From assembly GCA_038886535.1 (NCBI GenBank), contig JAVZXS010000002.1, forward strand, positions 154,877 through 218,876: a DNA stretch of 64,000 nt, given 5' to 3'. Shown here piece after piece: positions 10,170 to 55,829 of the stretch. The stretch's first letter is position 1, and every line of letters starts with the position of its first letter. A model generated the notes under the pieces. That model saw nothing but the letters and a program-made list of their open reading frames with translations. It searched no databases and was not told the origin of the DNA. The DNA comes from Candidatus Micrarchaeia archaeon. GTDB taxonomy: Archaea; Micrarchaeota; Micrarchaeia; CABMEP01. A program made the position numbers and the translations under genes.

Positions 10170-10183
10170 CTTTTAATGTTTAA

Positions 10184-10256
10184 TAGCCCCGACCGGATTC
10201 GAACCGGTGTCTCGGGCTCCAAAGGCCCGCATACTTGACCGCTATACGACGGGGCT
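10184..10256 (-). tRNA. tRNA-Gln(UUG), no intron
   Basis: Reverse complement AGCCCCGTCGTATAGCGGTCAAGTATGCGGGCCTTTGGAGCCCGAGACACCGGTTCGAATCCGGTCGGGGCTA folds as a cloverleaf; anticodon TTG; CCA not encoded. Confidence 0.96.
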
Positions 10257-10310
10257 ATACAAAAATATATACTATTTATAGCTAATCAAAATTTTAAATA
10301 CTTACTTATT

Positions 10311-43554: not shown

Positions 43555-43731
43555 GGGCCAGTAGCTCAGAGGTAGAGCGCTTCGTTCGCATAAACTTTCT
43601 TAGAAAGAAAGTTTAATCAAAGAAACTCTTTTAAGAAAAGAGTTTCATTAGAAAATTATGGATTAAGCTTTCATATTAAAAGAAAGTTTCGGAAAACGAA
43701 GAGGCCGCGAGTTCGAATCTCGCCTGGTCCA
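43555..43731 (+). tRNA. tRNA-Ala(CGC) with a 105-nt intron (43591-43695) at position 37/38
   Basis: Exon 1 GGGCCAGTAGCTCAGAGGTAGAGCGCTTCGTTCGCA; exon 2 ACGAAGAGGCCGCGAGTTCGAATCTCGCCTGGTCCA; G3:U70 Ala determinant; BHB with central helix UUCG/CGGA and 10-bp outer helix AAACTTTCTT/AAGAAAGTTT. Confidence 0.93.
43591..43689 (+). repeat. Three tandem palindromic hairpin units inside the tRNA-Ala intron
   Basis: TAAACTTTCTT-AGA-AAGAAAGTTTA (43591-43615), GAAACTCTTTT-AAG-AAAAGAGTTTC (43622-43646), AAGCTTTC-N9-GAAAGTTT (43665-43689). Confidence 0.85.
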
Positions 43732-43778
43732 TGATTAGTATGATCCATAATTAGTAAAAATCAATTAAAGAGGTTAAT

Positions 43779-45017
43779 ATGAAAAAAGCTGAAGGAAAAA
43801 AGAATATTAAAAGTAATGTCTTTTGGCTTGGGATTGTAAGCCTTCTTGCAGATGCTTCTTCAGAAATGATTGCTCCAGTTATGCCATTATTTCTTTCTAC
43901 TGTTCTTGGGGCAAGCGGATTTATGATAGGATTGATTGAAGGAATTGCAAAATCTGCTGAGAGGCTGCTCTCATTTGTTTTTGGATGGTATTCTGATAAG
44001 ATTGGAAAAAGAAAACCTGTGATTGCGTTTGGTTACTTTCTTTCATCAATTATGAAGGGAGCATTCGCATTTACAACTGTCTGGACTGAATTTTTGTTTG
44101 CAAGAGTTATTGAAAGAACAGGAAAGGCAATTAGAGATGCACCAAGAGATGCATTGCTTGCTTCTTCAACTGGAGATTCACTTGAGGAGAGAAGAAAGGG
44201 ATTTGCGCTGCATAGAATGTTAGATACGCTTGGTGCAATAATAGGTCCTCTAATAGCGCTTCTTTTTGTAGCCTCTCTAACGCTGGATTTCGAAAGCACT
44301 GTAAGGAATCTTTTCATTCTATCACTCATCCCAGGTCTTCTTGGGGTCTTAATAGTATTGATCTTTGTAAAGGATGTTGAGCTCAAAAAATCAGAAAGAA
44401 CAAAAAAACCAATCTCAAAATCATTTTCTATAGAATACGGAAATAGTTATAAGCAATTTCTGTTTTCCTTAGTTCCATTTTTCCTTTTTACTCCTCCACT
44501 TGCATTCATATATTTACAAGCTAGCGAATTCGGCCTTGTTCTATCTGGGGTTATAACACTTGGCTTTTTGTATTCCGTATTTTATATCTTAGGTGCGAAT
44601 CTAATTAATTTTATATCAGATAAATTCGAGATAAAAATAGGAAAGAAGCAGGGAATTGAAATTTCACTTTTGTTTGTAATGCTTTCATTCCTATCAGTTT
44701 TTCTTGTCCATTATTTGCAATTAGATCAGGGGAATGCTCTTACGTTTATTGTTTTGATCTTAGCATTGGTTCTTTATGGAATAGGAATGGGAATGTTTGA
44801 AGTGGAATCTAAGTCCTATATATCTCTTCTTGTAGATAAAAAAGATATGGGCGGAGCATTTGGAGCTTACCAAACAATAAGTGGAATTATGATAATCTTT
44901 TCAGGTTTGGTATTTGGATTCATTTGGGATTTTTCACCGGGATTTGCATTCTTAATAGCAAGCATCGCTTCGCTTCTTTCATTAATTATCTTCAGACATT
45001 TTATTAATTTCAGTTAA
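43779..45017 (+). CDS. MFS transporter
   Basis: About 12 TM; GWYSDKIGKRKP motif A; R.GKAIRDAPRDALL, FALHRMLDTLGA. Confidence 0.93.
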   Translation: MKKAEGKKNIKSNVFWLGIVSLLADASSEMIAPVMPLFLSTVLGASGFMIGLIEGIAKSAERLLSFVFGWYSDKIGKRKPVIAFGYFLSSIMKGAFAFTTVWTEFLFARVIERTGKAIRDAPRDALLASSTGDSLEERRKGFALHRMLDTLGAIIGPLIALLFVASLTLDFESTVRNLFILSLIPGLLGVLIVLIFVKDVELKKSERTKKPISKSFSIEYGNSYKQFLFSLVPFFLFTPPLAFIYLQASEFGLVLSGVITLGFLYSVFYILGANLINFISDKFEIKIGKKQGIEISLLFVMLSFLSVFLVHYLQLDQGNALTFIVLILALVLYGIGMGMFEVESKSYISLLVDKKDMGGAFGAYQTISGIMIIFSGLVFGFIWDFSPGFAFLIASIASLLSLIIFRHFINFS

Positions 45018-45043
45018 CTTATTTTTTATATCTTAATATAATC

Positions 45044-45946
45044 CTAATGTAATAAAATAGTGTCGCAGCCTTCTGGTTCTCCATAATATGCAGGACCGCT
45101 TATAACAAGTTTTACATATCCAAGTATGGGTATTCTGAAGATTACTTTTCCTTTTATGTCACTTTCTCTCACAATATCAAAATAGCTAATGTCCATATAG
45201 TTGTTATTGTCTCCCTTTGTTAGCAAATAGTAGCTTTCCCCCACTTTAAGCTTGAGAAATACTCTGTGAACTATATCCATATTTGTATATGTTCCGTTTA
45301 GATGGGATGCATAAACTATTACGTCATTAGTAAGATTTTCACTTATTTCCTTTTCATCAATATATATTGATCTAACACATTCAGGAGAATAACCTACCAA
45401 TTTCTTTGCTGAAGAAGAAATTCTTGGGCACATGCTCTGACATTTGTAAATGATGCTTCCATTCTTACTACTGCCGCATAAAACTTTAGAATTGTTTATG
45501 TCATTCAGTTCTTCTTCTGTTATTTCAATCGTAGGCGCATTAATGTCTTTTGCCTTAATTCCTTGCACTATTACAAAGTCTCCTCTCTCATAAGATGGCA
45601 GGAGAGAGCAGGAAACAACACTGCTAATTGGAACAGAGGTTCCAAGCAGGAAAGATATGGTTGCAAATATAATTATTGCAAGTGCCGCAGCCTTTAATAT
45701 CTCAATTATTTCTTGTTTCCAGCTTGTTTGTGATGCACTTACATAAATGTCAACAAAAAAATACGCAATAAGTGAAAAGCCTGAAAGAAATGCAAAGATT
45801 ATGGATTTTGTCAAAAGATATAGAATGAAAGATATTCCAAAAACAATCAATAGCAGATTGCTTTTATGTAGTTCTGTCAGTTTTTCTTTTCGTTTGTCTT
45901 CCTTTTCTATTTTTGTATTTTTTTCTAATTTATCTTCCATGATCAT
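45044..45946 (-). CDS. Signal peptidase I (S26, Sec11-like) with insertion
   Basis: VVSCSLLP..ERGD (Ser), DIVHRV (His), TKGDNN..D, RIPILGYVKL. Confidence 0.82.
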   Translation of the reverse strand: MIMEDKLEKNTKIEKEDKRKEKLTELHKSNLLLIVFGISFILYLLTKSIIFAFLSGFSLIAYFFVDIYVSASQTSWKQEIIEILKAAALAIIIFATISFLLGTSVPISSVVSCSLLPSYERGDFVIVQGIKAKDINAPTIEITEEELNDINNSKVLCGSSKNGSIIYKCQSMCPRISSSAKKLVGYSPECVRSIYIDEKEISENLTNDVIVYASHLNGTYTNMDIVHRVFLKLKVGESYYLLTKGDNNNYMDISYFDIVRESDIKGKVIFRIPILGYVKLVISGPAYYGEPEGCDTILLH

Positions 45947-46084
45947 ATTTGTTTGTAAAGTAATTAAAATATATCTTAAAATGTCGCAAAAATAGAATTA
46001 AGAAAAAATAAACGATTCAAATAATAAAAAATAGAAATATAAAAAAGAAAAAATAAGGCGATTGCAATGACAGACTAGTTATGT

Positions 46085-47161
46085 TTACCACATAACCTCT
46101 TCTATCATTTCATATGCCTTGTGTTCTTGTTTCTGCGGTTCAAGGTTTCCAAGCAATGATGTTGATGTTACACCAGTCATGATTGCAGTGACAACAACCT
46201 TGTCTCCGAGTTCTGGCATGAGTCTTGCTCCCCAGATTACATTTGCATTGTTGTCAAATGCTGCAGTTATTCCTTCACCAATCTTGGTTGCCTCACCCAA
46301 TGTAAGGTTTGGACCACCTGCTATGTGGATGAGGGCTCCCTTTGCACCCTCATAGCTGACATCAAGCAATGGGTGCTCTAGTGTGCTCTTTATTGCATCC
46401 TCAACTTTGTTTGTTCCCTTTCCTTCTCCAACAGAGAGCATTGCAACTCCACCGTTGCCCATGATTGCTCTTATATCTGCAAAGTCAATGTTGATGAGTG
46501 ATGGGGTCATTATAGTATCGGATATTCCTTTTATTGCTCTTGCAAGGATTTCATCTGCTACATTGAATGCCTCATTCATTGGTAAGTTTGGCACATATTG
46601 AACTAATCTGTTGTTGTCAATCACAACCACGGTGTCACATGTTTTTCTTAATTCTTCCAATCCCCATCTTGCCTTTTCTGTTCTCGCTCTCTCAAGAGAG
46701 AACGGGTATGTAACCATACCAACTACTATTGCACCCTCTTTCTTTGCAACCTCTGCAACTACTGGTGCAGCACCTGTACCTGTACCTCCTCCCATACCTG
46801 CTGTAATGAATACTAAATCTGCTCCGCTTAATGCCTCTGCAAGCTTGTCTTTTGATGCCTCAGCTGCCTTTCTTGCAACCTCCGGATATCCTCCAGCACC
46901 AAGACCTCTTGTTATTGACTGACCAATTAAGAGTCTCTTGTGAGCCTCTGTTATCTTTAGGTGGTTGACATCAGTGTTAATTGCTATTGTGTCTGCTGTT
47001 TTTATCCCAGATCTCATTATTCTGGTGATGCTGTTGCATCCACCTCCACCTACTCCTACAACAGTGATTCTGATCTTGTCAGATCCAAGGTAATCTTTCT
47101 CCGGTGCCTTGGTCGCCTTAACTGTGGTTCCAGATGTAAACGAACTTAGGAAGCTTTCCAT
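46085..47161 (-). CDS. ftsZ: Cell division protein FtsZ (FtsZ2-like)
   Basis: [32 protein letters not shown]; ATG 47161 preceded by GGGTG. Confidence 0.97.
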
Positions 47162-47238
47162 TTTAACACCCTGCCTCAAATATTATTTTCCACTAAAAAA
47201 ATTAAGTGGACTGGCTGAAAATCAGCCAGCTAACAAAT

Positions 47239-48300
47239 TCAACCAATTATTTCAATGTCACCATAAACTGGTGATTCTACTTTTTGCTCTTCAAGTGGTA
47301 CTCCTACTACACTTGCGCCCTTTACTCCAGTTACGATCGCAACTATTTCTATCTTGCCATCGTATCCTGGAATAAGTCTTGCTCCCCACTTGACGCTTGC
47401 TGTTGAATCCATTCTTTCAGTTATTATTTCTCCTGCTTTGATTGCATCTCCCAGTGTTAGATCGTTTCCACCAGAGATGTGGATCAAAGCACCCTTTGCT
47501 CCTTCGAAGTCAACATCAAGCAATCTGTTCTTTAGAACTCCTTCTGCAGCTGCCTGAACCTTATTTGTTCCTCTTCCTTCACCAACTGCAATGAAACCAA
47601 CATCACCTTGAGACATGATTGCTCTTACATCTGCAAAGTCAATGTTGATTAATGAAGGCTGTGTGATTGTCCAGACAAGTCCACCAATTGCTCTTGCAAG
47701 TATCTCATCTGCAACTCCGAAAGCCTCGTTCATTGGGAGATTTGGAACTAATTGAACCAGTCTGTTGTTGTCAATTATAATAACACTGTCTGCGTGTTTT
47801 CTAAGCATCTGAATTCCTTCGTCTGCTTTGCTTCTTCTTGCCTTTTCAAGTGCGAATGGGTATGTAACCATAGCAACTACTATTGCACCTTGTTCTTTTG
47901 CAATTTCTGCAACAACAGGAGCACTTCCTGTACCTGTACCTCCTCCCATACCTGCACATATGAATACTAATTGTGCGTCCTTCAATGCTCTTTCAATTAA
48001 AGGCTTGTCAATTTCTGCAGCCTTTCTTCCTACATCAACATATCCTCCAGCACCAAGACCTCTTGTTATAGATTTACCTATAAGAATCTTTTGAATCCTT
48101 TCATCTAATGTCAATAAGTGCTGGTTATCTGTATTGATTGCAATCAAATCAGCACCCTTGACACCATATCTAAGAAGTCTCTGAAGGGTGTTGTTTCCTC
48201 CACCACCGCAGCCCACGACTGCGATCTTAATTCTTTCAACTGGACCAAGATTTGACTCAGCCTCAGTGTGTCCTGTAACAGATTTGATTAAGCTTTCCAT
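47239..48300 (-). CDS. ftsZ: Cell division protein FtsZ (FtsZ2-like), tandem paralogue
   Basis: [34 protein letters not shown]. Confidence 0.97.
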   Translation of the reverse strand: MESLIKSVTGHTEAESNLGPVERIKIAVVGCGGGGNNTLQRLLRYGVKGADLIAINTDNQHLLTLDERIQKILIGKSITRGLGAGGYVDVGRKAAEIDKPLIERALKDAQLVFICAGMGGGTGTGSAPVVAEIAKEQGAIVVAMVTYPFALEKARRSKADEGIQMLRKHADSVIIIDNNRLVQLVPNLPMNEAFGVADEILARAIGGLVWTITQPSLINIDFADVRAIMSQGDVGFIAVGEGRGTNKVQAAAEGVLKNRLLDVDFEGAKGALIHISGGNDLTLGDAIKAGEIITERMDSTASVKWGARLIPGYDGKIEIVAIVTGVKGASVVGVPLEEQKVESPVYGDIEIIG

Positions 48301-48465
48301 TACAATCGCCTCAATATTGCTATTAATATATAATATTTAAATATGTTTCTTTTTTTCTTTTTTCTTCGTCGTAAATTTTTTGAAAAATTTTCAATTTTGA
48401 AGAACGAAAATAACTATTTTGATACTTTTTCAATTTTTTGACGACTCAAAAATAAAAAAATAGTT

Positions 48466-48532
48466 TTAAAAATATTGAATTATAATTCTTATTTGTATAT
48501 ATAAAATTGTTAAAAATATTGAATTATAATTC
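48466..48532. promoter_or_regulatory. Perfect 23-bp direct repeat, each copy containing palindrome GAATTATAATTC; candidate operator
   Basis: TTAAAAATATTGAATTATAATTC at 48466-48488 and 48510-48532, upstream of the DUF134 gene. Confidence 0.6.
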
Positions 48533-48583
48533 ATGTACTTTAAACATTATGTGCTGTCAAAATATTGCTAATAATCAAGTGAT

Positions 48584-48868
48584 ATGATGCCAAAAAAGAG
48601 AAAATATAGGAAGATAGGTTCGGTTCCTAATGTAAGAATATTCAAGCCATTTGGAAATAAAGTAAATCATTTAGATGAGATCGTATTAACAATCGATGAA
48701 TTCGAGGCACTAAGACTTGCTGAATTAAACAATCTTAAACAGAAACAAGCAGCAAATAGAATGTGGATTTCTCAATCTACTTTCAATCGTCTTCTTAAAT
48801 CAGCTAGAAAAAAGATTGCTTTGGCAATTATAGCGGGAAAACAAATTAGAATCGAATCAAGCAAATAA
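48584..48868 (+). CDS. DUF134 family HTH protein
   Basis: FKP.G, LTIDEFEALRL, Q.QAA.RM.ISQSTF.RLL.SARKKIA. Confidence 0.93.
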   Translation: MMPKKRKYRKIGSVPNVRIFKPFGNKVNHLDEIVLTIDEFEALRLAELNNLKQKQAANRMWISQSTFNRLLKSARKKIALAIIAGKQIRIESSK

Positions 48869-48892
48869 ACAAAACGTAAATGAATTTAGTCA

Positions 48893-50038
48893 TCAGATTA
48901 TTTCTTCGATATTTCCGTCTGCAGCTTTTTCAATTCTTTCCATTATTGCTCTTCCTATTCCGAATTCATAAACTCCTTCAATTAAGATAACATCGAAATT
49001 ATTTTTATCGGCATTTCTCAACTCTTTAAATAGACAACGGGCCATTTGAATATGGTTTTCATACTCTGTGATGTTTCCTAATTTAGAAAATTCTTTCTTC
49101 ATTTTTTCAGGTATTGGTTCTGAGAATATTATCTTTACTTTTTTCTTTTTATTGGATAATTTTTCTGCAGCATATGCCATATTTATTATTGTTTTCATTC
49201 TGCCATCCTTTCTTCTTCCTATGAATACCTTTGCATCTGGAGAATAGTGTTTATATTTCATACCTGGAGAAAGAGGTTTTTCGCAGTTCTTTTTGCAGAT
49301 TTCAATATTCTTCTTTAGTTCTTCTTCTATTTGTTCTTTTGTTATGTAACCTTCTCTTAAAATAGTATATGGTTCAGACACCATATTAATTACAGTTGAT
49401 TCAATACCTATCTTACATTGGCCACCATCTATAATTAATGGGACCTTTCCTTGAAGATCAAAAAATGCATCTTTTGCATTAGTGGCACTCGGTTTTCCTG
49501 AAAGATTTGCAGAAGGAGCAGCGATAGGAAATCCCGATGCTTTGATTATGTCTAATGCAATAGAGTGGTTTGGCATTCTTATTGCAATAGTATCTAATCC
49601 TGCAGTTGTTATCTCTGGTACTAAAGTATTTTTCTTTAATATCAAAGTTAAAGGTCCAGGCCAAAATTTGTTCATTAGTCTCTTAGCATCTTCGCTTATC
49701 TCTTCAACTAAGAATTTTAACATTTCTAAAGATGATATATGAACAATTAATGGATTGTCTTTAGGTCTGTTTTTTATTTTAAATATCTTAGAAACAGCGC
49801 TAGAGTCAAATGCATTTGCACCTAAGCCATAAACTGTTTCGGTTGGAAATACTATAACCTCTCCAGAATTTAGTAATGATGAAACTTCTTCTATTATTCT
49901 TTTATATTCATGTACATGTAGTTTTCTTACATCGATTATTTTAGTGTTGATAATCCGTTCTTCTTTTGGGTTGAGGATTTGATGGTTTTTATTTTTTCCC
50001 CTTGCTTCTTTCTCTTTTTTATTTCTTTTCAAATCCAT
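48893..50038 (-). CDS. sua5: Threonylcarbamoyl-AMP synthase Sua5
   Basis: FPTETVYGLG, K.RP.DNPLIVH, FWPGPLT, APSANLSG, GIESTV, PGMKYKHYSP. Confidence 0.96.
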   Translation of the reverse strand: MDLKRNKKEKEARGKNKNHQILNPKEERIINTKIIDVRKLHVHEYKRIIEEVSSLLNSGEVIVFPTETVYGLGANAFDSSAVSKIFKIKNRPKDNPLIVHISSLEMLKFLVEEISEDAKRLMNKFWPGPLTLILKKNTLVPEITTAGLDTIAIRMPNHSIALDIIKASGFPIAAPSANLSGKPSATNAKDAFFDLQGKVPLIIDGGQCKIGIESTVINMVSEPYTILREGYITKEQIEEELKKNIEICKKNCEKPLSPGMKYKHYSPDAKVFIGRRKDGRMKTIINMAYAAEKLSNKKKKVKIIFSEPIPEKMKKEFSKLGNITEYENHIQMARCLFKELRNADKNNFDVILIEGVYEFGIGRAIMERIEKAADGNIEEII

Positions 50039-50142
50039 AATCTACACCATATAATAACCAACATAACTAATTTTGACTTAAAATTTAACGAAATTTTTCT
50101 TTATATATTTAACGATTTTTTAATGCAAATGTAAAATGAGAT

Positions 50143-51072
50143 CTAAACCTTGATTTTTCCAATTATTCTCATCTTTCCTTCTGGCCTTAGTAAAAGATAC
50201 TCATTTCCAGGAATGATTGCAATATCTTTATCTGATTTAAGTTTTATCTTTCCATCTGAAACACTTACAACATCAACCTGCCTGTATTGAAGATGCGCAG
50301 CGATAAATATTTTGCTGTTTTCTTTTACTTCTTCTGTGTAATACTTATTCTTTATGAAATCGCCCTCTATTTCCTTTGCAGATTTTAATTCCTGCTTTGA
50401 AAATAAATGCCCTCGTTCTACCTCTTCAACGCTGACTCCTTTTAGTGCCAAGCCAACTCTTTCTCCTATTTCAGCGGATTTTACATCTTTATCATGGACT
50501 TGTATGGATCGAATCGTTACTTTTTTTCCTCCAGGATATATTCCGAATTCATCATGGACATTTACACTCCCTCTCGCCACGCCAAGAACGACAGTTCCAA
50601 CGCTTTTAACGTCAAAAGCGGCATCGATTATTACATGTTCTATTTCTGATTTTTTATTTTCAAATTTTGCAATTCTTGGATATATTTCAGATGGAACCTT
50701 ATCTACAATTATGAATGATTCAAGCACAGTTCCTTTTACTAAATTTACAAATTTGTCTTTTTCGACATAATCATCAAATATTATCAATCCTTTGTTTATT
50801 CCTAAAAGGTCAAGCGCTATTATGTACTCCCCCAATTCTTTATCTAATTTTTTAACAACTAAAATTGCTGCATCTGCCATTGCCAAGCAGTGAGTTAGTG
50901 ATTGAAGCTTTTCTGGATAGCTTGTAGGAACTAAGAAAGTCGCAGTCAGTTCTCTACCTTGCATGTCACTTCCTTTGTAATTATATATTGTAAAATCAGT
51001 AACAGTTCCTTTTTTTCCAAGTTCTTTTGCAAATTCGTTGTCTCCTAAAATTACGACATTTATATTCTTCAT
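50143..51072 (-). CDS. SelB-like / EF-Tu domain 2 protein with degenerate G domain (archaeal SelBL type)
   Basis: LGKKGTVTD, YPEKLQSL, ID.AFDVKSVGTVVLG, IRSIQVHD, GERVGLALKG; no GxxxxGK[ST]. Confidence 0.85.
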   Translation of the reverse strand: MKNINVVILGDNEFAKELGKKGTVTDFTIYNYKGSDMQGRELTATFLVPTSYPEKLQSLTHCLAMADAAILVVKKLDKELGEYIIALDLLGINKGLIIFDDYVEKDKFVNLVKGTVLESFIIVDKVPSEIYPRIAKFENKKSEIEHVIIDAAFDVKSVGTVVLGVARGSVNVHDEFGIYPGGKKVTIRSIQVHDKDVKSAEIGERVGLALKGVSVEEVERGHLFSKQELKSAKEIEGDFIKNKYYTEEVKENSKIFIAAHLQYRQVDVVSVSDGKIKLKSDKDIAIIPGNEYLLLRPEGKMRIIGKIKV

Positions 51073-51171
51073 TTTTTACACCGCTATATTTTATACAATA
51101 AATAATTAGTATAATTATAATTAAAATTAATATTTATAATATTTAGCAGGCTAATTTTTCCAGTTGATAAA

Positions 51172-51891
51172 ATGACTAAATTTGTAAGACTACATAGGTT
51201 TTCTAATATTTCCGCTTCACAACTTTGGTCTTTTACGATAGCTGCAAGAAAGATGCCTAAAGGATTTTATCAGCTTAATCCAATTTCGTTTGTTAAAGAG
51301 AATGAAGGAGAAATGTTTATTTTAGAAAAGGATTTAGAAAAATTTTCTAAATCTATTCCAACTGAAGTTCAAAATACATTGATTCAAAATTTCTTTTCAG
51401 AATGGTTTAAATCTTACGAATTAGCAAAAATTTCAATTAATGATCTTAATGGACTTTCCTTTTCTTCTCTTTCTAATGAAGTTCTTTACAAAATTTATTC
51501 TATAATAAGTATGCAAAGCAGCGATGTTTCAAAAATTATTTTCTTTTCAAAGGTATTGGAGGTAACAAATAAAGATATGCATTCGAAATTGAGGACCTTT
51601 CTTTCAAATAGATCAATATCCGATGGAGAGATCCTTTCTCTTTCTTTGAATTTGTTTAATGACAAACTATTTGAAGAGATAGGAAAACGAATATACAAAA
51701 CAAAAAAAGAAACTTATCTAATGTCTCCAGAAGAGTTCCATTCCGCTCTCTATGGTGGTGTTTTTGACGATGAAGAAATAAACGAAAGAAAAACAAATTA
51801 CATAATGGTTTATGATCTTGAAAAGGATGCGCCACATATCTATAGCGGAGAAAAAGCAAGGGTAATGGAAGCCTCTTTATTAAAAAGTTAA
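51172..51891 (+). CDS. Hypothetical protein
   Basis: 239-aa ORF; no recognised motif. Confidence 0.65.
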   Translation: MTKFVRLHRFSNISASQLWSFTIAARKMPKGFYQLNPISFVKENEGEMFILEKDLEKFSKSIPTEVQNTLIQNFFSEWFKSYELAKISINDLNGLSFSSLSNEVLYKIYSIISMQSSDVSKIIFFSKVLEVTNKDMHSKLRTFLSNRSISDGEILSLSLNLFNDKLFEEIGKRIYKTKKETYLMSPEEFHSALYGGVFDDEEINERKTNYIMVYDLEKDAPHIYSGEKARVMEASLLKS

Positions 51892-51920
51892 ATATAATTT
51901 GTATATTTCAGGGTGGTAGT

Positions 51921-52205
51921 ATGATGTCTGAAATACCTATAAGACTAGATAAGGTAAATAAGAAAGATATAGACAAAGAGATTTTAAGAGCAGGAATAAT
52001 TGCAGAACTTGATGCAATTAATCTATATGAGCAAATGGCAGCATTGGCTCAAGATAAGAAGATAAAAGCTATGCTTCTTGACATTGCAAAAGAAGAGAAG
52101 ACCCACGTCGGCGAATTTCAAAGGCTTCTTTTGAATAGAGATAAGCAACAGGTGGAAGAATTAGAAAGGGGAAAGGAAGAAGTAATGAAAGAAGTAGGAG
52201 AATGA
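51921..52205 (+). CDS. Ferritin-like half-bundle protein (rubrerythrin/EncFtn type)
   Basis: AELDAINLYEQ..DIAKEEKTHVGEF di-iron motifs. Confidence 0.88.
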   Translation: MMSEIPIRLDKVNKKDIDKEILRAGIIAELDAINLYEQMAALAQDKKIKAMLLDIAKEEKTHVGEFQRLLLNRDKQQVEELERGKEEVMKEVGE

Positions 52206-52208
52206 GTG

Positions 52209-52568
52209 CTATTCCTTCAATGCTTTTTTTACTTCTTTTATTAAATCTGTATGTATGGATGTTTTAGGCAGAACTCTAACTGGAAAATATTTTGCTGCGA
52301 ATTCTCTTTCTATTTCAAATGGCATTCCTACTGCAGTCACTACTATTACTGGTTTATTTAATCTCATTTTTTTGAATTCAGCCATTACTTCTCTTCCAGA
52401 CATTACCGGCATCATGATGTCTAAAAGTATAAGGTCATAATTTTTTGCCTTTTTGATTCCTTCTTTCGGATTCAATGCATAGTCTGCTTTATACCCATTC
52501 ATTTCTAAAAGCATCTTAACACTTTCTGCAACATCACTTTCATCTTCTATTATTAATATCTTTTTCAT
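52209..52568 (-). CDS. Stand-alone response regulator receiver domain
   Basis: ILIIEDE, ILLDIMMPVMSG, VVTA, conserved Lys. Confidence 0.93.
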   Translation of the reverse strand: MKKILIIEDESDVAESVKMLLEMNGYKADYALNPKEGIKKAKNYDLILLDIMMPVMSGREVMAEFKKMRLNKPVIVVTAVGMPFEIEREFAAKYFPVRVLPKTSIHTDLIKEVKKALKE

Positions 52569-52581
52569 TTTATCACCATTA

Positions 52582-55500
52582 CTATTCCCTTGGAAGAATT
52601 ATCTCAAATCTAGTACCTTTTCCTTTTTCACTCTTTACGTTTATCTCTCCTTTGTGTTTATCAACAATTTCTTTAACAATTGTTAAACCAATTCCCGTGC
52701 CCGGTGAATTTGGATCTGCCTTATAAAATTTTTCAAAAATATGGGATTTTTCTTCTTCTGTCATTCCGATTCCAGTATCTTCTACAGCAATCATAAATTT
52801 ATGGTCGAAGGATTTGGTTTCTATTTTTATTTCCCCTTTATCAGTAAATTTAACAGCATTGCTTATAAGGTTTGATAGCATCAATGAAAACAAATTTTTA
52901 TCTATCATAGCTACTATAGGTTCTAATTCCCTTTTAATGACTATTCCTTTTTTATTTGCTAGCGGAGAGTACTCTTCATAAATCTCATTAATCAAATCAT
53001 TTATTATTGTTCTTTCTTTATTTAGAGCCACTGAACTTAATCTAGTTAAATTCAATATCTGATCTATAGAGTTCTTTAATCTTTCACCACTTCTTTGCAG
53101 CATTTCAATCATTTTGAGCCATTCTTTTTCCTTTCCAATTGGTGCCATTTGCTTTAGCATTTCTAAATTTGTTAATATAACTGAGGTGGGCGTTTTAAGT
53201 TCGTGCGTCATATTTCTTATAAATTCATCTTTTGTTTCTTCTAGCCTTTCAATCTGCTGCAATTTTTCATTTAGCTCTTTAGTTTTATTTTCTACTTCTT
53301 TTTCCAATTCTATCCTGTAGTTTTTCTCTAAATTTTCTTTTTCTTTTCTTTCAGTTATGTCATGAAACATAATGTATATTTTATTTAATTTATTTTTTTC
53401 TAATTCTCCTTGAGCTAGGATTTCAACATCGTATTTTTTACCATCTAAGCTTATTTCTATATCGTCGTGATAAATTCCATCTCTTTTAACTGCAGAAATT
53501 ATTTTTTTAATAAGTTTTTTATCCGAGTAAATATCAAAAATATTCTTTCCGATCAGTTCAGTTGTTTTTAACCCATATCTCTCAATAGAAGGGGTTACTA
53601 ATTCAATGTTTAGCTTATCATTTAACTCAAAATATATGTCGTTTATGTTTTGGAATAATGTTCTATATCTTTTTTCAGATTCAGTTATAAGATCTATTAT
53701 TTCTTTTTCTTTCGTTATATCACGATATACAATAATAAGATCGCCTGTTTTAATTTTAAAAACATAGTAATCACGCCATCCTTTTCTTATCGGATCACTG
53801 TAATATATGTTTTTAATTTGCGTTTTTTTACCTGTTTTGAGTGTCTGTCGAAGCTGTTTTAATAATCCTAGTTTTTTAATTCCTGGAAACATTTTTGCGA
53901 TGTTCTTTCCTATTACTTCTTCTTTTTTAACTTTGCTTATTTCAGTGGCTCTTTCGTTTATTTCTTTAATAATGAAGTTTCTTCCATTTTTAATAGGGGT
54001 TAAAACAATTATGCCATCACTGATATTCTCAAATATATTAAAGTAAAGTTCTTCTCTTTCTTTTAATTTTTCTTCTATTGATTTTCTTTGTCTTATATCT
54101 CTTAGGATTGCTATTAATTTTATTTCATTTCCTATAGTAAATTTATTCATAGTTAATTCAATTGGAATATTTTCTTCTTTTGTTCTAATATTTACTTCTA
54201 CTGTTTTTCCAATTAGGGGCGATTTTCCTGTCTTCTTAAAAATATTTAATCTATTCAATGGATATTCTTTGACTGAAAGTATAGAATGAATATCCTTTCC
54301 TTTTATCTTTTCTAACTGATAGCCTGTTAGTTTTTCAAATGCTTTATTAACATATTCGAACCTAAGATTGCTGTCTCCCACTACGATTGCATCTACACTA
54401 GCATCGAAAACGCCTTTTAAATATTCATTGTCTTTTTTAATTTCGTCTAACAATTCCTGCTCTCTAGTTAGATTTATGTGGTTTGCAAAAAAGTAAGAAG
54501 GCTTGCCTTTTTCAAAAACAGTATCAATTATTAATCTAACTGGAATATTATTTCCATATTTATCTTTGTTGATGATATTCCCTTCCCAGTGACCTTTTCT
54601 TTTGTCTAAAATGGATTTCCACATTTCTTTATAGGTTTTTAATGGAGTCAGTCCAGATTTTAATATTTTTGGATTTTTACCGATTACTTCTTTTTCATCA
54701 TATCCATAAAGACCAGTGAAAGCAGAATTAACGTGCATTATAACTGGTTCATTGTTTTCATATTTTACTAAAAGTCTTGAAATTGCACTTAATGTGAATC
54801 CTTTTTTTAGTAATTTTAATTCATCAATTTTTCTTTTTTCAGATTCTTCAAGTTCTTTTTTGTAAATCATTTGGCTGATTTGCGAAGCTAAATCTTTGAT
54901 CAATTTAATCATATATCTGTTTATTAAAATCTCATTTCTGAAATGTATAGTTAGGATCCCATAGAATTTGTTTCTTATTTTTATAGGATATAATGCAGCA
55001 GAATGGCTGCCAGTTTCTTCTTTATGCTGTCTGTAAATTCCTTTAGAAACATCTTCAATGACGAATCCCTTTTTCTTAACTTTCTCAATCAATTCATCAT
55101 TATAAAAACCTAAAATCTCCTCTTTTGTTTGATCAGTCGAAGAATAGAAATAAAGTTCCTTGCTTTTTCCATCAATTCTTAAAAGATGGATGCAACCTAA
55201 ATATTTATTTTTATGGATTTTTTGAACAACTGCGCTTAATATTTTTTCTTCTATAAGTGGCTTATTCAAAATTATATGAACATCCAGTAAGGTTCTAAGT
55301 AGTTCATTTACTACTTTTAATTCTTCAGTTTTCCTTAGCTCTTCAGTTATTTCATTTAAAATCAGCATAACTTCGACAATGTTATTATTTTCATCCGTTA
55401 TTGGGTTACAGATGGTTATAAATTTTCTTTTTTTACCCCCTATCATTAATTCCAAATGTTTTATTCCTTCTTTGCCGTTTACCGCATTTAAAAACAAACG

Positions 55501-55674
55501 TTGTACTTCATTATTTTCAATTTCTTTAATTCTTAAAAAAGGAATTTTTTTCATCAATTTGTTCTTAAAAATAAAGTTTCCTTTTAAATCCAGAATTGCA
55601 ATATTTACTGGGAGATTTCTGATTATTCTTTTCATTAATGGTGTTATAATTTGTTTTGCACCTGCTGTTTCCAT
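52582..55674 (-). CDS. Cytoplasmic PAS/GAF sensor histidine kinase
   Basis: Multiple PAS repeats (VN.AF..L.GY...E.IG), GAF-like segment, H-box THELKTP, NLISNAVKF, DTGIGM, GTGIGL. Confidence 0.94.
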   Translation of the reverse strand: METAGAKQIITPLMKRIIRNLPVNIAILDLKGNFIFKNKLMKKIPFLRIKEIENNEVQRLFLNAVNGKEGIKHLELMIGGKKRKFITICNPITDENNNIVEVMLILNEITEELRKTEELKVVNELLRTLLDVHIILNKPLIEEKILSAVVQKIHKNKYLGCIHLLRIDGKSKELYFYSSTDQTKEEILGFYNDELIEKVKKKGFVIEDVSKGIYRQHKEETGSHSAALYPIKIRNKFYGILTIHFRNEILINRYMIKLIKDLASQISQMIYKKELEESEKRKIDELKLLKKGFTLSAISRLLVKYENNEPVIMHVNSAFTGLYGYDEKEVIGKNPKILKSGLTPLKTYKEMWKSILDKRKGHWEGNIINKDKYGNNIPVRLIIDTVFEKGKPSYFFANHINLTREQELLDEIKKDNEYLKGVFDASVDAIVVGDSNLRFEYVNKAFEKLTGYQLEKIKGKDIHSILSVKEYPLNRLNIFKKTGKSPLIGKTVEVNIRTKEENIPIELTMNKFTIGNEIKLIAILRDIRQRKSIEEKLKEREELYFNIFENISDGIIVLTPIKNGRNFIIKEINERATEISKVKKEEVIGKNIAKMFPGIKKLGLLKQLRQTLKTGKKTQIKNIYYSDPIRKGWRDYYVFKIKTGDLIIVYRDITKEKEIIDLITESEKRYRTLFQNINDIYFELNDKLNIELVTPSIERYGLKTTELIGKNIFDIYSDKKLIKKIISAVKRDGIYHDDIEISLDGKKYDVEILAQGELEKNKLNKIYIMFHDITERKEKENLEKNYRIELEKEVENKTKELNEKLQQIERLEETKDEFIRNMTHELKTPTSVILTNLEMLKQMAPIGKEKEWLKMIEMLQRSGERLKNSIDQILNLTRLSSVALNKERTIINDLINEIYEEYSPLANKKGIVIKRELEPIVAMIDKNLFSLMLSNLISNAVKFTDKGEIKIETKSFDHKFMIAVEDTGIGMTEEEKSHIFEKFYKADPNSPGTGIGLTIVKEIVDKHKGEINVKSEKGKGTRFEIILPRE

Positions 55675-55716
55675 GATTTATTTTTATATAGTATATTTTT
55701 AAATTTATTTAATCAG

Positions 55717-55829
55717 GGCCGCAGAGGGGAATCGAACCCCTGCTTGGAGGTTTCTGCATCTTTGATGAAACTTTCCTTTGCAGAAAGTTCCTCCACAGCC
55801 TCCCGTCCTGCCATTAGACGACCGCGGCC
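55717..55829 (-). tRNA. tRNA-His(GUG) with genome-encoded G-1 and a 41-nt intron (55752-55792) at 37/38
   Basis: Exon 1 (G)GCCGCGGTCGTCTAATGGCAGGACGGGAGGCTGTGG; exon 2 ACCTCCAAGCAGGGGTTCGATTCCCCTCTGCGGCC; C73; central helix CUGU/GCAG. Confidence 0.92.

Follow-up and report, generated by a model that had tools for sequence, protein, structure and literature searches.

How does the same small palindrome come to sit within the introns of two unrelated transfer RNA genes? The question is raised by a 64-kb stretch of DNA (hereafter the window; contig JAVZXS010000002.1, positions 154,877 to 218,876) from the genome of a Candidatus Micrarchaeia archaeon, in which tRNA-Ala(CGC) and tRNA-His(GUG), encoded on opposite strands, are each interrupted by an intron carrying a hairpin followed by an ATCAAAG tail. 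An earlier note on this DNA had proposed that the shared unit is a short non-autonomous mobile element, similar to repetitive extragenic palindromes (REP) and laid out like the substrates of HUH/Y1 transposases, that uses tRNA introns as a neutral site, or alternatively that it belongs to a family of functional intron-derived small RNAs with a protein-binding hairpin. The comparisons set out below favour, with moderate confidence, a family of self-copying, non-autonomous modules that are themselves introns of the bulge-helix-bulge (BHB) type, that is specific to one family of the Micrarchaeota, and that includes both introns of the window.

An Rfam covariance search and ARAGORN, followed by direct reading of the introns, identified three tRNA genes in the window at the Rfam level: the two already named and an uninterrupted tRNA-Gln(UUG) (10183-10257, minus strand). 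By default, with no intron mode, ARAGORN called only tRNA-Gln, missing the other two because both are interrupted, and apart from tRNA nothing in the window reached an Rfam gathering score. The tRNA-Ala(CGC) gene occupies 43555-43731 of the plus strand (Rfam tRNA, 53.6 bits), its exons (43555..43590 and 43696..43731) flanking a 105-nt intron at position 37/38 (43591..43695) that contains three units. The first consists of a hairpin with a 10-11 bp stem and an AGA loop (43591..43615; 33.3 bits with the covariance model R1 described below) and its ATCAAAG tail (43616..43622), the second of a hairpin at 43622..43646 (41.9 bits), and the third of a degenerate hairpin at 43664..43690 (27.7 bits) whose 3' arm closes the intron. 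A scan for the strict hBHBh' motif, defined as a 4-bp helix H with a 3-nt bulge at either end, enclosed between helices h and h', recovers this intron with H formed by TTCG/CGGA, bulges CAT and AAA, and a 10-bp h' in which the 5' arm of unit 1 pairs with the 3' arm of unit 3.

The tRNA-His(GUG) gene lies on the minus strand at 55717-55828 (Rfam tRNA, 46.6 bits), with a 5' exon at 55793..55828, a 3' exon at 55717..55751 and, again at 37/38, a 41-nt intron (55752..55792) made up of one unit and its tail. The unit hairpin (55767..55791; R1 37.1 bits) has a 10-bp stem including two G-U pairs and a GCAAA loop, and the ATCAAAG tail follows at 55760..55766. Here the motif is of the relaxed type, with a central helix CTGT/GCAG and a 3' bulge AAA and with no h' beside the 3' strand; the stem of the unit, this 4-bp helix and the bulge are all present in the minimum free energy fold. 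When the introns are removed in silico ARAGORN calls a 72-nt tRNA-Ala(cgc) and a 71-nt tRNA-His(gtg), and an intron-less Ala(CGC)-like gene from a related organism, found on a metagenome contig, joins exactly at the predicted 43590|43696. The hairpins and tails described for the two introns were thus recovered where they had been placed. The pattern AACTYYY..RRRAGTTT-N-ATCAAAG has two matches on both strands of the 64 kb, namely the two introns, and 0 of 100 dinucleotide shuffles of the window gave any match, which was the control that the earlier note had called for. Compared with shuffled sequence the Ala(CGC) intron folds with z = -5.5 (0/200 as good) and the His intron with z = -2.4 (6/200).

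The two introns belong to a larger set. In the genome of the window (G000; 1.14 Mb, 33% G+C, 40 contigs, 88% complete), ARAGORN with introns allowed reported 16 interrupted tRNA genes, several under a wrong identity. Half of the 18 interrupted tRNA genes now recognized in G000 bear units, 15 in all, and the other nine have none; the carriers are Ala UGC, Ala CGC, Arg UCU, Gly CCC, His, Ser GCU, Ser CGA, Thr CGU and Leu GAG. The unit is about 25 nt long and reads GAAAC or TAAAC, a pyrimidine arm, a loop of 3-5 nt, a purine arm and GTTTC or GTTTA, followed by ATCAAAG. Introns bearing it are found in the anticodon loop at 37/38, at 30/31 in Thr CGU, and in the T-loop of Leu GAG (76 nt). Seven carriers were recognized by reading the ARAGORN list, including the tRNA-Thr(CGU) gene, which ARAGORN had named Phe(aaa) and which a unit intron interrupts at 30/31; the remaining two, Ala UGC (located in the 16S-23S spacer) and Leu GAG, were missed both by ARAGORN and by a genome-wide Rfam tRNA scan.

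Covariance model R1 was trained on 13 of the G000 units, so that those units match by construction and what its scan adds is a single new hit and the absence of any further ones. R1 returned 19 hits in G000 with E < 0.1 (best E 6e-6), all inside the nine carrier genes, and one of these, in Leu GAG, was not in the training set; the next best hit outside a tRNA gene had E = 0.15 among the 150 candidates scored. An independent scan of G000 for AAAC...GTTT hairpins found the pyrimidine-arm type (AAACT-pyrimidine) at eight sites, all of them tRNA introns. Rfam covariance models gave only sub-threshold hairpins resembling microRNA precursors, on six carrier loci and at 20-27 bits against cut-offs of 58-117. 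The covariance-model scan that the earlier note proposed accordingly finds further copies, both in other tRNA introns of G000 and, as described below, in its relatives.

Other intron sequences were encountered alongside the units. In G000, outside the window, tRNA-Ala(UGC) (C1:178-355, locus L001) is interrupted twice, by a two-unit module at 37/38 and by an unrelated T-loop insertion of about 30 nt. The tRNA-Trp gene of G000 (C1:129442-129649) holds a 135-nt intron in which UGAUGA and CUGA boxes can be read by eye, a resemblance to the C/D-box guide introns known from tRNA-Trp genes of other archaea. A C/D-box nature of the unit introns themselves was considered and rejected: the junction of CTTTGAT with GAAAC spells UGAUGA, but by eye no consistent D box follows it.

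The arrangement of units within the introns bears directly on what the repeat is. Introns hold from one to about five units, and in the commonest form two units are inverted around a middle hairpin, ATCAAAG-loop-CTTTGAT, whose 5' arm is thus the ATCAAAG "tail". The resulting module of about 67-75 nt is a palindrome whose arms are themselves palindromic, and the outer arms of two-unit modules constitute terminal inverted repeats of about 11 nt, as in miniature inverted-repeat transposable elements (MITEs). Predicted folds take the form either of three hairpins (the isolated Arg UCU intron) or of a rod of about 30 bp (Ala UGC, Gly CCC, Ala CGC), with z-scores between -3.5 and -5.65 for the modules and the value of -2.4 given above for the short His intron. 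In the rod fold, the introns of four carriers (Ala UGC, Arg UCU, Gly CCC and Ala CGC) contain additional BHB-like motifs with long flanking helices; the purine and pyrimidine tracts may have generated these by chance, or they may permit nested cleavage.

A strict hBHBh' motif lies exactly at the expected splice sites in six of the nine carriers, and in those six h' consists of the 5' arm of the first unit paired with the 3' arm of the last (GAAAC/GTTTC, 3-10 bp). Besides Ala(CGC), examples include Arg UCU (H = CTTC/GAAG, bulges TAC and TAA), the T-loop intron of Leu GAG (H = TTCA/TGGA, bulges AAT and AAT) and Thr CGU at 30/31 (H = CGCC/GGCG); His, Ser GCU and Ser CGA, with one unit each, have the relaxed motif only. 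The four bases that follow the last GTTTC pair with the exon, with positions 32-35 in the anticodon loop and as TTCA in the T-loop. The introns thus consist of units together with 4-7 adaptor bases, which supply one strand of H and the bulge, and of nothing else. Consequently the earlier suggestion of a neutral landing site does not hold, as the units are not insertions into pre-existing introns but make up the introns, and their outer arms are the h' helix.

Copying between genes for different tRNAs is indicated by several near-identities. Within G000, unit 1 of Arg UCU and unit 2 of Ala CGC are identical over 26 nt, comprising the hairpin and the next two bases. About 70 nt of the Gly CCC intron of a congener, G001, are near-identical to the 3' two-thirds of the Ala CGC intron of G000, and metagenome contigs from other hot-spring runs join Gly CCC and Arg UCU exons to sequence matching 43620-43684 of the window, the Gly CCC contig with one difference in the 60 positions of 43625-43684. 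The most extensive case is found in G007, a genome of the sister genus, whose introns in Arg UCU, Thr CGU and Val UAC (the last in the D-loop, as judged by eye) are 91-97% identical over 74 nt, whereas the Arg UCU intron of G007 is only 65-70% identical to its orthologues in G000, G001, G005 and G006 and 83% to that in G004.

Gain and loss of modules can likewise be read between close relatives. Four sites that are empty in G000 are filled in G004, with otherwise near-identical exons: Thr UGU (0 versus 79 nt), Glu UUC (0 versus 35), the T-loop of Trp (0 versus 38) and the T-loop of Ser CGA (0 versus 78). The anticodon intron of Ser CGA has one unit versus two between G000 and G004, and the number of units varies among Ala CGC orthologues as well; among metagenome contigs, one skips 43624-43683 and another has 28 extra bases. 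The comparison of orthologous tRNAs that the earlier note had recommended accordingly yields presence and absence of the unit, and the features by which cross-isotype intron families of the Thermoproteales are recognized (near-identity, several positions, presence/absence) are found here too. A separate observation concerns G004 C1:2950-5246 (L118, L119), where a partial 3' copy of tRNA-Ser(CGA) lies 1.7 kb from the gene; it begins in the anticodon loop, lacks that intron precisely and retains the two-unit T-loop intron. The partial copy resembles the repeat that an element leaves on integrating into the tRNA gene.

The family extends through the relatives of G000 but is thinly scattered beyond them. 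The order to which G000 belongs contains only ten genomes, and the family of G000 is referred to below as f1. All six congeners and G007 have units. At E <= 0.01, R1 finds matches in 8/8 other f1 genomes (one of them, G008, by a single weak hit) and in 4/32 genomes of other families. At the more stringent E <= 2e-4, 14 of 151 genomes of the class give hits (f1 7/8, f8 3/15, f16 2/18, f5 1/21), with none in 26 other families of the same 151-genome set. Such patchy spread within the class suggests the behaviour of a mobile repeat. Among the six congeners 34 of 35 hit loci are tRNA genes (14 confirmed by Rfam, the rest by eye), the exception being a copy after a stop codon in G004 (L122). A short hairpin with a fixed tail, non-coding and dispersed over many unrelated tRNAs, is therefore found both in G000 and in its relatives, as had been supposed.

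Copies also exist outside introns, so that spliced sites are not the only ones that the repeat occupies. In G007, units occur in 11 tRNA genes and in one 16S rRNA insertion, and eight elements lie elsewhere: two after stop codons (L135, L141), one 3' of a tRNA gene (L143), and short-spacer elements beside a GGTGAT-ATG of the other strand (L139, L144, L147, L156; also L145). Four G007 copies are antisense to their flanking genes, and some of the spacer copies have TATA-like loops beside the GGTGAT and ATG, which may hint at a promoter. The rRNA copy lies in a 16S fragment (C2:70750-71290, L137), in which a 53-nt unit-bearing insertion follows GGCGAA where the Rfam model has one position; a second insertion in the same fragment, of 48 nt and located in the GCCAGC-CGCGGTAA loop, has no unit. 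In the f8 and f16 genomes, copies lie directly against tRNA genes, at the 5' end in antisense (L151, L197, L198) or at the 3' end in sense (L149, L150, L200), another follows a stop codon (L199), and another forms an Ala CGC intron (L202); a unit intron in Ala CGC is thus shared by f1 and f16 (G076). Over all genomes, stop codons are abutted or overlapped in sense at L019, L122, L135, L141 and L199, and intergenic copies are present in G004 and the f8 genomes as well as G007. The earlier note's expectation of a copied repeat fits this behaviour, namely presence and absence at orthologous sites, cross-tRNA identity in G007 and copies outside introns.

Some further observations accompany the non-intron copies. 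In each of three near-identical upstream regions of G037 (C3:262766, 267611 and 270111; L018, L154, L155) a unit lies some 20 nt ahead of a pilin-like open reading frame with a hydrophobic N-terminus; the triplet looks like a gene duplication that has taken the unit along. G007 has a second small repeat, with a 15-base core in four copies with at most one mismatch (C1:119749, C2:68365, C1:31581, C6:19529), common to the T-loop intron of tRNA-Ala(UGC) and to an intergenic site beside a unit. As the core occurs in both settings, the units are not the only intron sequence of this lineage to be dispersed as a repeat. A viral origin of the units was examined and rejected: the hairpin-plus-tail pattern matched 33 viral contigs, which by eye were repeated phage coding stretches or AT-rich hairpins of giant viruses, none in a tRNA context.

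How could such a module spread among tRNA genes without harm? In the precursor tRNA the outer GAAAC/GTTTC arms pair beside both 3-nt bulges and so act as the h' helix; in the mechanism proposed here, the splicing endonuclease of G000 would then excise the module, making the insertion harmless. Copying itself would take place at the DNA level, between tRNA (or rRNA) loops. The barrier to entering a new loop would be low: every tRNA has YU at positions 32-33, which would make half of the four adaptor bases common to all anticodon loops and leave just two that are specific, and all four would be common to all T-loops, leaving none. A more specific version of this reading is that the repeat is an archaeal "introner", a palindromic element resembling MITEs or REPINs (paired REP sequences), without an HUH enzyme, whose terminal repeats supply h'. 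Insertion into a tRNA or rRNA loop with two to four matching adaptor bases would immediately create a spliceable intron, and the non-intron copies would be the same element at other tolerated sites. This version is put forward tentatively, its chances being well short of even.

A splicing endonuclease is encoded in G000. The genome has two PF01974 genes, one of which encodes a 381-aa EndA that matches the epsilon-type structure 4fz2 of ARMAN-2 with E = 7e-123. According to published accounts of the ARMAN-2 enzyme, it cuts strict and relaxed motifs at both canonical and non-canonical sites (PMC3239211, PMC12397907). The second homologue, of 173 aa (C16:6311-6829; L027:1474-1995, minus strand), has the Pfam N- and C-terminal domains and aligns end to end with the EndA of Methanocaldococcus jannaschii (1a79); because Ser occupies the position of the catalytic His, it is probably a structural subunit. 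An orthologue of this paralogue, of about 175 aa, is present in all nine f1 genomes (39-96% identity among the eight relatives), and weaker small EndA paralogues are found elsewhere in a few other families only.

A number of observations weigh against a self-copying module. The first is that no mover was found: a profile search for PF01797 (Y1_Tnp) gave no match in 5/5 carrier genomes (82-94% complete) while control genomes were positive. Nor do the sites at which G004 has an intron and G000 has none show a target-site duplication, apart from 1-4 ambiguous bases at the splice junctions. For the one non-tRNA copy in the congeners, L122 of G004, the upstream gene has an orthologue in G001 without a unit after the stop codon, and the downstream DNA is unalignable, so that the boundaries of the element are unreadable. 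Of the roughly 3200 first-look candidates in G000, the R1 scan scored just 150. Within the genus, introns of orthologous genes cluster for the most part by tRNA (Arg UCU 88-97% identical among G000, G001, G005 and G006; Ala UGC 94-100%), a pattern of mostly vertical descent with occasional exchange that gene conversion could also yield. Single-unit introns present the unit and then the tail on the sense strand in 12/12 independent cases judged by eye, which an RNA-level constraint predicts and random DNA insertion does not. Finally, the stem base (GAAAC/GTTTC) and the tail are conserved across the distant families f1, f5, f8 and f16, and many of the non-intron copies sit at the ends of tRNA genes or immediately follow stop codons; such conservation and placement could reflect a function.

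The last of these points lead to the strongest rival, in which the hairpin with AUCAAAG is a functional RNA motif, serving as a lineage-specific protein site or as a signal for processing, termination or stability, and is repeated by function. The motif would be placed in those parts of stable-RNA precursors that are discarded, namely introns, leaders, trailers and the 16S-23S spacer, as well as in 3' untranslated regions. Constant orientation, conservation among four families and the placement of copies at tRNA ends and, in sense, at stop codons are all in keeping with it, as are the runs of 5-8 T on both strands of the intergenic variants, T runs being a feature of archaeal terminators. Covariation of the stems also speaks for it. 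Over 126 distinct copies from G000 and relatives, 96.5% of cells pair, 8 of 11 pairs have changed on both sides, and doubly changed cells number 114 compared with 31.6 in shuffles, with slid controls 43-68% paired; the alignment was fitted to the model and includes both strands of the palindrome and related sequences, and these figures show that pairing is maintained, be it in RNA or in DNA. The earlier statement that stem changes keep the pairing, as in the two G-U pairs of the His stem, is upheld by these counts. DNA palindromes, however, would show the same pattern. Neither of two counts gives a clear bias towards the RNA strand: among 73 distinct sense rows, G-U stands at 28 and A-C at 17, partly blurred by misaligned short units, and hairpin energies favour sense over antisense in 15 cases and the reverse in 13, with 38 ties (p = 0.28). 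A required motif sits poorly with strong R1 hits in so few genomes of the class and in none of 26 families, with carrier tRNAs that differ between congeners, such that no tRNA needs the unit, with the four antisense copies in G007, and with the lack of any Rfam family match; the patchy distribution also argues against the intron-derived small RNAs of the earlier note. A functional motif is thus judged unlikely, although it is the alternative to be taken most seriously.

A second rival retains the introns but dispenses with transposition to new sites: old, vertically inherited introns would have been homogenised by gene conversion, under an endonuclease preferring a GAAAC/GTTTC h'. The grouping of introns by tRNA within the genus agrees with it, as do the presence of the Ala CGC unit intron in both f1 and f16 and the common internal parts and differing adaptor ends of the Gly CCC and Ala CGC introns, which are what conversion tracts would be expected to leave. 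What counts against conversion is that new sites have arisen, G004 having introns at four positions where G000 has none, that one 74-nt intron occurs in anticodon loops and a D-loop of G007, and that units lie in the 16S insertion and in intergenic DNA, which offer no homologous flanks for conversion. As the sole explanation, homogenisation therefore seems rather improbable.

Still less probable, to the point of being very doubtful, is that the units are substrates of an HUH/Y1 transposase, either a REP-associated tyrosine transposase (RAYT) or an IS200/IS605 TnpA, in the manner of REP/REPIN or of palindrome-associated (PATE-like) elements, with introns as neutral landing sites. REP and REPIN sequences are short palindromes with a fixed flank, often arranged as inverted doublets, and the doublets of the unit family resemble them; the intergenic copies of G007, G004 and the f8 genomes are likewise of the kind expected. 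Against this stands the absence of PF01797 from the five carrier genomes, so that the proposed link to IS200 or RAYT enzymes finds no support. TnpB-like genes are present in two of the five, none of them adjoining units. In G000, one TnpB-like match (PF07282) lies in a 368-aa open frame (C25:5118-5315) with no unit nearby, and no TnpA was found in that genome. The units of G000, moreover, were found only in tRNA introns (150 candidates scored), where they form the whole intron. In G131, an inverted pair of units 2.3 kb apart encloses tRNA synthetase-like, acetyltransferase-like and other ordinary genes but no transposase, and an autonomous partner of the units was not encountered, no systematic search having been made. 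Of the original mobile, REP-like proposal there survive the dispersed, copied repeat and the REP-like doublet, and there fall the neutral site and, for the five genomes searched, the HUH/Y1 enzyme. That the likeness arose by chance, from AT-rich hairpins that any BHB intron needs for h' in a genome of 33% G+C, is refuted by the empty shuffles, by the R1 scan with E down to 6e-6 and every hit below 0.1 in a tRNA intron, by 26-nt identity between different tRNAs and the cross-tRNA identity in G007, and by nine other intron-bearing tRNAs without a unit.

The self-copying intron module has a precedent in other archaea. A 2010 study by Fujishima et al. (MBE) reportedly described "large-scale intron transposition" in the Thermoproteales. 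In later accounts, cross-isotype tRNA intron families of that order are attributed to intron transposition by a mechanism that is not known (PMC4090602, PMC3239211), and a census of Asgard archaea, published as a 2026 preprint, used the Thermoproteales as a positive control for copying from tRNA to tRNA, detected almost none in Asgard, and gave no general route by which tRNA introns arrive (10.64898/2026.10.13.758758). The unit family resembles those of the Thermoproteales in its differences between close relatives and in an endonuclease that accepts non-canonical sites; the lineage is different, however, with Micrarchaeota and an epsilon-type EndA in place of the alpha-beta type. So far as the Thermoproteales families are described in papers that cite them, the present family differs further in its modular, nested palindrome with a variable number of units and ends that coincide with h', and in having copies within a 16S insertion, at the ends of tRNA genes and behind stop codons. 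The closest taxonomic comparison is ARMAN-2 (Ca. Micrarchaeum acidiphilum), in which many tRNA genes are described as being disrupted, with introns at 37/38 and 59/60 and strict as well as relaxed BHB motifs (PMC3239211, PMC12397907). ARMAN-2 shares with G000 the phylum, the epsilon-type EndA and introns at 37/38 and in the T-loop, but the main-text passages of PMC3239211 mention no intron sequence family or common hairpin. In the limited collection of literature searched, no paper on intron sequence families in Micrarchaeota was found.

Two kinds of mobile repeat invite comparison as well. REPIN/RAYT systems and MITEs derived from IS200/IS605 are, like the unit family, short non-coding palindromes whose inverted pairs form a long hairpin, often just after genes. 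The unit family differs in having no Y1/HUH gene in the five carrier genomes and in placing most copies in tRNA genes, as predicted introns, instead of between genes; REP sequences are mainly intergenic, whereas units are found only in tRNA genes in G000, and in G007 eight non-intron elements stand against 12 tRNA or rRNA genes. Eukaryotic introner-like elements and transposon-derived introns are spliceosomal and reside in protein genes. They too are non-autonomous repeats that bring what the host splicing machinery needs, but in the present case mobility is inferred, and splicing is predicted to be of the protein-only BHB type, in tRNA and rRNA.

The cross-isotype BHB-intron family as such is already known; what is new here is the lineage, the modular palindromic build, the coincidence of its ends with the splice motif, and its occurrence outside introns. 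For annotation, the family means that tRNA genes are easily overlooked: default ARAGORN misses both interrupted tRNAs of the window, and Ala UGC and Leu GAG escape ARAGORN and Rfam alike. The modules also provide defined substrates for the structurally known epsilon-type endonuclease, and the unit is a sequence tag by which intron gain can be followed in metagenome time series. The gain of introns by archaeal tRNA genes is an unsolved problem for which the Thermoproteales offer one accepted case of transposition, without a mechanism. A second, unrelated lineage now displays the phenomenon in more readable form, with a short palindrome, recent copies up to 97% identical, filled and empty sites, and copies outside introns. 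Should the introner interpretation prove true, it would supply a concrete route by which archaeal tRNA genes gain their introns.

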